DNA from: a virus
Taxonomy: Duplodnaviria; Heunggongvirae; Uroviricota; Caudoviricetes
Virus record (IMG/VR): IMGVR_UViG_3300015156_000025
Span: 1 to 15,163 of that record
Direction: 5' to 3' (one strand)
Length of the DNA stretch: 15,163 nt
Shown piece after piece: positions 43 through 118 of the stretch; position 1 is the stretch's first letter; every line of letters begins with the position of its first letter. A model generated the notes under the pieces. That model was not told where the DNA came from, made no database searches, and worked only from the letters and a program-made list of their open reading frames with translations. Made by a program: the position numbers and the translations under genes.

Positions 43-118
43 TGGTGCCCACTACCGGAATCGTACTTGTGACTTACTGATTACAAGTCAGTTGCTCTAC
101 CTACTGAGCTAAGTCGGC
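43..118 (-). tRNA. tRNA-Thr(UGU)-like gene, possibly degenerate (defects confined to the 3' half)
   Basis: Reverse complement of 43..118 reads GCCGACTTAGCTCAGTAGGTAGAGCAACTGACTTGTAATCAGTAAGTCACAAGTACGATTCCGGTAGTGGGCACCA. Acceptor stem, GCTC/GAGC D-stem and ACTGA/TCAGT anticodon stem are present, with loop CTTGTAA (anticodon TGT) and an encoded CCA. However the T-loop reads TACGATT rather than TTCGAWT, the T-stem has two mispairs and the acceptor stem has a G-G mispair. Confidence 0.55.

Follow-up and report, generated by a model that had tools for sequence, protein, structure and literature searches.

The tRNA-Thr-like gene near the left end of the analysed DNA (the window, 15,163 nt at its full length) is a phage-carried copy of Escherichia coli thrU encoding tRNA-Thr(UGU). 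At this site, the real feature heads a cassette of two tRNA genes, tRNA-Thr(UGU)-TAT-tRNA-Gly(UCC), located between the antiterminator gene Q and the lysis genes. Four substitutions give the gene its defective appearance. Together with one change in the adjacent tRNA-Gly and five mismatched terminal bases, they very probably represent a substitution-error tail at the end of a short-read contig, and we are similarly confident that the real phage genome carries an intact tRNA-Thr identical to thrU.

Results

A tRNA-Thr gene with four substitutions relative to thrU

ARAGORN detected one tRNA in the window, a tRNA-Thr with the anticodon TGT, which reads GCCGACTTAGCTCAGTAGGTAGAGCAACTGACTTGTAATCAGTAAGTCACAAGTACGATTCCGGTAGTGGGCACCA on the minus strand. 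The gene scored 55.6 bits with the Rfam model RF00005, compared to a gathering score of 29, and adopted a cloverleaf, identifying it as a member of the tRNA family; in the Rfam alignment, pairs of both the acceptor stem and the T-stem were flagged as non-standard. Comparison with thrU of E. coli K-12 revealed 72 of 76 nucleotides to be identical and exactly four substitutions (Table 1), while positions 1-44 were the same as in thrU. The A52.C62 mismatch in the T-stem is native to thrU and hence does not count among the four changes. A thrU-type tRNA-Thr(UGU) is expected to have U33 and A37 beside its anticodon, as well as G1-C72 and C2-G71 in the acceptor stem; the gene has both pairs, and its anticodon loop reads CUUGUAA. 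The ThrRS identity elements G1-C72, C2-G71, G35 and U36 were all kept. An earlier note on this DNA had described a tRNA-Thr-like gene with a TACGATT T-loop and mismatches in the T-stem and acceptor stem; ARAGORN, Rfam and the comparison with thrU all confirmed this description for the given sequence. The note had also proposed covariance-model scoring and comparison with the host's tRNA-Thr genes, and these returned a score above the gathering score, yet with a non-canonical T-arm, and a sequence four substitutions away from thrU.

Table 1. Features of the window, with the changes of the tRNA-Thr gene relative to K-12 thrU
Feature	Window position	Strand	Basis or remark
Terminal bases no longer matching tRNA-Gly	1..7	.	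Five of seven differ from prophage L151
glyT-type tRNA-Gly(UCC), first 32 nt	8..39	-	Cut in the anticodon loop by the contig end
Spacer TAT (3 nt) between tRNA-Thr and tRNA-Gly	40..42	-	Typical of the phage cassette
tRNA-Thr(UGU) gene with encoded CCA	43..118	-	ARAGORN, Rfam, comparison with K-12 thrU
C69G	50		Acceptor stem gets G4.G69
U55A	64		T-loop TACGATT instead of TTCGATT
C51A	68		Breaks the 51:63 pair (A51.G63)
G45A	74
A+T-rich spacer and tRNA leader	119..370	-	Sequence, consensus scan
Intrinsic-terminator-like hairpin with T run	371..396	-	L151 10636..10661, mapped as window = 11032 - x
Q-type antiterminator gene	489..1031	-	DUF1133 and weak Phage_antitermQ match; annotated as antitermination protein Q in phage vB_EcoS-683R6
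ybcO	1028..1318	-	Upstream of tRNA-Thr
DUF1367 gene	1318..1929	-	Upstream of tRNA-Thr
Illumina adapter, 41 nt	15123..15163	+	Exact match, reverse complement of TruSeq universal adapter

A near-identical prophage differs from the window only at its left edge

Among the matches listed, the exact Q protein of the window was found in GCA_050755655.1 and GCA_044913165.1 (designated L151 and L152), followed by L156 and L157 as the next closest viral contigs. L151 was 99.955% identical to window 8..11031. All ten differences between the two sequences occurred at window positions 1, 2, 4, 5, 7, 34, 50, 64, 68 and 74, and all were substitutions, with no indel. Not a single mismatch was present in the adjoining 10,957 nt (75..11031), so that the differences were restricted to the terminus, as is expected of an artefact. 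Ordinary divergence cannot account for ten differences packed into 74 nt when the next 10,957 bases are identical. Their density increased toward the terminus, with four at 41-74, one at 8-40 and five in the last 7 bases, and such a thickening is the profile of a decaying read end. The four transitions and six transversions correspond to the ratio of about 1:2 expected for random miscalls, unlike the natural divergence of the region, which amounted to 78 transitions and 49 transversions, mostly at third codon positions, against the next relative. One of the ten may have to be set apart: window 34 is C6 of tRNA-Gly where the otherwise identical prophage has T6, and this C is a natural allele, occurring in about half of the phage cassettes, that need not be an error.

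In L151, L152, L156 and L157, the closest relatives among the matches listed, the tRNA-Thr gene was identical to thrU at 76 of 76 positions and was followed by a complete tRNA-Gly(UCC). The intact gene in L151 scored 73.8 bits, which puts the cost of the four changes at 18 bits of covariance score. Three of them strike strongly conserved structure, namely U55, the pair 51:63 and the pair 4:69. The minimum free energy fold of the window gene lost the T-arm and reached -18.7 kcal/mol (z -0.6), compared to -22.8 kcal/mol (z -2.0) for the intact gene. A canonical T-arm, with a 5-bp T-stem and U54-U55-C56, was lacking in the window copy and present in all four relatives, indicating that the T-arm failure is specific to this contig end.

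The clustering of the changes in the 3' half is only marginal within the gene itself (0 of 43 versus 4 of 33 positions, about p=0.03 by hand calculation). Lying on the minus strand, the gene has its 3' half closest to the end of the contig, and the defects therefore look confined to that half. The statement of the earlier note that the defects are confined to the 3' half thus holds for the given sequence, in which positions 1-44 match thrU, but is not confirmed for the organism, since the changes all lie within 74 nt of the contig end. Taking the 3' defects as a biological property of the gene is most likely mistaken: they occur in this contig alone and close to its end, and all near-identical prophages carry the gene intact.

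The window is a short-read contig with unreliable ends

The last 41 nt of the window, AGATCGGAAGAGCGTCGTGTAGGGAAAGAGTGTAGATCTCG, exactly match the opening 41 nt of the Illumina TruSeq universal adapter in reverse complement. The same sequence has been given as a library adapter, 'adapter 2' (PMC7303419). The presence of the adapter at the right end indicates that the window is a complete contig, that the short reads behind it went untrimmed into the assembly, and that its ends are unreliable; it is a sign of uncleaned reads that is independent of the substitutions at the other end. Homology of recE to its relatives stops at 15122. The recE reading frame (12052..15144, 1030 aa) runs on into the adapter, from which its final residues, TDRKSVV, and the stop codon are translated; the true recE extends past the contig and comprises 1048 aa in L154. 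Neither the RecE product nor a 107-aa reading frame of the window retrieved a record of this contig from the indexed collections, which agrees with a RecE C-terminus derived from adapter.

At the left end no adapter was found, and the first 7 nt matched, by inspection, none of the familiar Illumina adapters. That the left end is a contig end as well is indicated indirectly by the odd length of the window, the adapter at the other end, and a break inside a known repeat. A fold-back chimera was also considered for the left end; five of the seven bases match the reverse complement of the preceding stem, a stretch too short to judge.

The match to tRNA-Gly stops 7 nt from the window edge, within a repeat that phage and host have in common and that consists of 76 nt of thrU (perfect) and about 75 nt of glyT (near-perfect). 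The contig would have broken at the cassette because the cassette repeats thrU and glyT of the host. Probably, the last ~75 nt derive from the poor-quality ends of a single read or of a few reads, and an error-bearing read would have created unique k-mers and thereby a dead-end tip running into the repeat. An adapter at one end, end-weighted substitutions at the other and a stop inside a repeat are what the window shares with contig-end artefacts of short-read assemblies, from which it differs in that its left end carries no adapter. The IMG/VR contigs L065 (1..90) and L049 (16..105) likewise start or end right at the Thr-Gly cassette, as would fit a site at which assemblies break repeatedly because it duplicates host thrU and glyT.

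The tRNA cassette lies downstream of Q in a Rac-like prophage

The window is part of a Rac-like lambdoid prophage. Upstream of the tRNA-Thr gene and on the same strand are the Q gene, whose GTG start overlaps the ybcO stop, ybcO itself and the DUF1367 gene; farther to the right follow replication genes, ydaS/ydaT, cI-like genes and recE. The distance between Q and tRNA-Thr is ~370 nt. In relatives showing this arrangement, which are a prophage of E. coli M8 (L001), phage vB_EcoS-683R6 (L002), and L151/L152, the order is Q, ~370 nt, tRNA-Thr, TAT, tRNA-Gly(UCC), ~760 nt, holin(s), endolysin, terminase and portal/head genes, and the ~760-nt stretch holds several terminator-like hairpins. The tRNA-Thr gene is thus located between Q and the lysis genes and on the strand of Q. 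This bears out one of the two readings offered by the earlier note, a phage-borne tRNA that is downstream of Q and co-oriented with it, as Q, ybcO and the DUF1367 gene are all encoded upstream on the minus strand and the same order recurs in the relatives.

The terminator-like hairpin listed in Table 1 falls between Q, which it closely follows, and the tRNA leader. By consensus scan, terminator-like hairpins flank the cassette more often than expected (7 found versus 1.8 expected), while promoter-like sites around the cassette occur at chance rate. The leader contains the promoter-like hexamers TTGACG (232..227) and TTGCGA-16-TATCAT (216..189) as well as a run of 9 G, and is presumed from its sequence to be a candidate late-promoter region. 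The G run (minus strand; window 155..175) varies in length, being shorter in L001 and L002 and the same in L151. Within the leader, GGTTCTGAGGGG can pair with CCCCTGAAGAACC, reaching the 5' end of tRNA-Thr, and such pairing near the 5' end of the tRNA may matter for processing.

The prophage also contains a complete hok/sok locus, with an Rfam sok hit of 118.9 bits (2552..2727, minus strand) and a Hok/Gef reading frame in the region 2402..2614. The locus (2402..2727) is placed between the DUF1367 gene and an inserted pair of overlapping genes (2911..5266, plus strand) that run opposite to the surrounding phage genes. The first member of the pair encodes a 380-aa NA37/YejK-like nucleoid-associated protein (PF04245), the second a protein of 410 aa with no Pfam match, and PADLOC returned no match for either gene. 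The pair is identical in L151/L152 and absent at the same place in L001/L002; from its sequence context it looks like a moron cassette. A second Q-like antiterminator gene (5276..5803, minus strand; PF06530 Phage_antitermQ, 175 aa) is located ~4.2 kb from the DUF1133-type Q, so that the hok/sok locus and the NA37 pair sit between the two Q-like genes.

The cassette recurs in phages while the variant is private to the window

At least 245 complete E. coli genomes had the arrangement of Q and tRNA, matching 80% or more of window 1..1500, with up to several cassettes per genome, and the cassette was present in more than 120 IMG/VR viral contigs among the matches listed, this number being a lower bound. 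It also occurs on other phage backbones (phi467, vB_EcoM-606R7, PhiR47_1) and in Citrobacter braakii, Enterobacter hormaechei, Shigella flexneri and E. ruysiae. The same tRNAs are thus found at the same place in independent phage genomes, including the sequenced phage vB_EcoS-683R6.

The tRNAs are almost invariant while the flanks of the cassette diverge by 5-19%. In most copies the phage tRNA-Thr equals the host gene, with variation mainly at D-loop positions 16 and 20. The tRNA-Gly exists as two alleles, one identical to that of the host and one with the compensatory change C6-G66 to T6-A66, and two copies have T6 with G66. From sequence comparison, the invariance of the tRNAs and the compensatory change at 6:66 point to selection for a working structure; alternatively, recurrent conversion by the host genes may account for the invariance.

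A scan in which the whole 3' half was left free showed the 3' half to be that of thrU in 122 of the 129 other Thr-Gly phage cassettes listed, and none of the four window changes occurred in any of the 129. A degenerate scan allowing any combination of the four changes retrieved the wild type only, among the matches listed. Single damaging changes (G57A, G67A, a 1-nt insertion) were present in a few other cassettes and are unrelated to those of the window. Across 5,426 complete E. coli genomes no match exceeded 96.1% identity over the variant stretch, and the exact variant was not found in IMG/VR viral contigs or JGI metagenome contigs. Accordingly, no donor or sister allele of the window variant is known in the collections searched (IMG/VR, JGI metagenomes and the 5,426 E. 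coli genomes).

Alternative explanations of the substitutions

The substitutions might be real, the tRNA-Thr and tRNA-Gly genes of this prophage having very recently decayed to pseudogenes in the isolate through a local cluster of mutations or through conversion or rearrangement with a breakpoint in the anticodon loop of tRNA-Gly. The given sequence does carry the changes, all of which are damaging or neutral and none compensatory, as decay predicts; the few other cassettes with single damaging changes, and the fact that a redundant copy of a host gene could be lost without cost, point in the same direction. Such decay, however, would require an extreme burst of ten changes in 74 nt beside 10,957 unchanged nt that by chance fell at a contig end, and the excess of transversions is unlike the natural divergence of the region. 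No donor sequence was present in any collection searched, and the adapter at the other end demonstrates the poor quality of the contig ends. In addition, a truly diverged copy would have provided unique k-mers, with which the assembler, instead of halting 7-40 nt further on, would have passed into unique sequence downstream. We therefore regard recent pseudogene formation as unlikely. A real burst of mutation or rearrangement confined to the two-tRNA cassette, with protein genes otherwise identical to the base in the relatives, appears quite unlikely; if true, it might reflect damage directed at a structured and highly transcribed tRNA locus, error-prone repair there, or selection inactivating phage tRNAs. 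Neutral decay in a host diverged by ~7% was another candidate. The idea came from comparison with complete E. coli genomes only, of which the best relative was 93% identical and differed by 5.3% in the tRNA-Thr, similar to the flanks, and it was abandoned after L151, a 100%-identical prophage, had come to light.

The 3' halves of tRNA genes are the targets of many integrases, and with defects limited to the 3' half the earlier note had alternatively read the gene as a host tRNA-Thr whose 3' part was replaced by phage att sequence, with the junction at about 43..80. The surroundings refute this. On the 5' side are the phage genes Q, ybcO and DUF1367, and on the 3' side, in L151, tRNA-Gly followed by holins, endolysin, terminase and portal, while the host context thrU-tyrU-glyT-thrT-tufB is absent. 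Inspection to the left of the window, as the note had proposed, was possible in L151 and uncovered phage genes instead of host genes. No integrase was found in the window or in the 9.5 kb to its left in L151; related Rac-like prophages have theirs beyond recE/recT/xis at the far right, next to host ttcA or yebY. As the arrangement of leader, tRNA-Thr and tRNA-Gly moreover recurs in >120 phage contigs, a hybrid att site is next to inconceivable. Partial tRNA genes at prophage ends such as ptwF, pauD and pawZ in E. coli K-12 are att-site duplications, and they resemble the window gene in being prophage-linked tRNA-like sequences with differences in the 3' part. They are, however, fragments at the prophage-host boundary beside integrase or host genes, whereas the window gene is full-length and in the middle of a prophage. 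A functional variant, in which an altered T-arm and acceptor stem were adaptive, e.g., as a decoy or a nuclease-resistant version, would fit the retention of the ThrRS identity elements in the sequence, and in other systems phages are known to encode tRNAs altered so as to evade anticodon nucleases. Here, though, none of the changes falls in the anticodon loop, two stem pairs and the near-universal U55 are lost and uncompensated, and the variant is unique to one contig end and absent from all relatives examined, making adaptation highly improbable.

Discussion

Taking the substitutions as a sequencing-error tail, the gene itself can be compared with its likely counterparts. Of the 76 nt of E. 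coli thrU, the first gene of thrU-tyrU-glyT-thrT-tufB, 72 are shared by the window copy and all 76 by the copies of the four closest relatives; the anticodon, the encoded CCA and the native A52.C62 mismatch are shared as well, and the neighbouring gene is a copy of glyT. In contrast to the host operon, the phage genes are located between Q and the lysis genes in flanks without homology, only the mature tRNAs being similar, and thrU and glyT, which in the host are separated by tyrU and a long spacer (about 115 nt), are separated by the 3 nt TAT in the phage cassette. The four extra substitutions of the window, attributed to error, are a further difference.

Genes for tRNAs downstream of Q are well established in lambdoid phages. 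Stx phages such as 933W carry ileZ-argN-argO at this site; a literature search on these gene names found nothing. In phage SfI, genes for tRNA-Asn and tRNA-Thr(UGU) directly follow Q, and one or both of these genes occur at the same position in Sf6, ST64T, PS3 and p21 (PMC3636060). SfI displays a bias for ACA codons, on which an argument for codon supply was built (PMC3636060). The window cassette agrees with these phages in its position before the lysis cassette, orientation, UGU anticodon and proposed codon role. It differs in its partner, which is Gly(UCC) rather than Asn (SfI type) or Ile/Arg (Stx type), and in the DUF1133-type Q and the Rac-like backbone (recE, kilR/ydaE region, ydaS/ydaT).

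Transcription of the cassette would start in the late-promoter region that follows Q, together with the late operon or ahead of it, and processing would then release mature tRNAs that may supplement the minor host tRNAs reading ACA and GGA/GGG. In the early-region genes of L151, ACA makes up 31% of Thr codons and GGA 27% of Gly codons, and in the late genes 13% and 17%, respectively, with no enrichment of ACA in the latter. The E. coli averages are about 13% for ACA and about 11% for GGA. Codon usage thus lends modest support to a codon-supply role of the cassette.

As the window begins with an error tail and finishes in adapter, neither the defective tRNA-Thr, nor the truncated tRNA-Gly, nor the C-terminus of RecE should be interpreted, and caution is required for any feature within ~100 nt of either end of the window. 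The anomaly is most likely technical and its biological significance small. A tRNA-Thr(UGU) gene downstream of Q in lambdoid phages is of a kind already described and adds no new biology; the phage copies of thrU and glyT, however, constitute a predictable break point for short-read assemblies of enterobacterial genomes.
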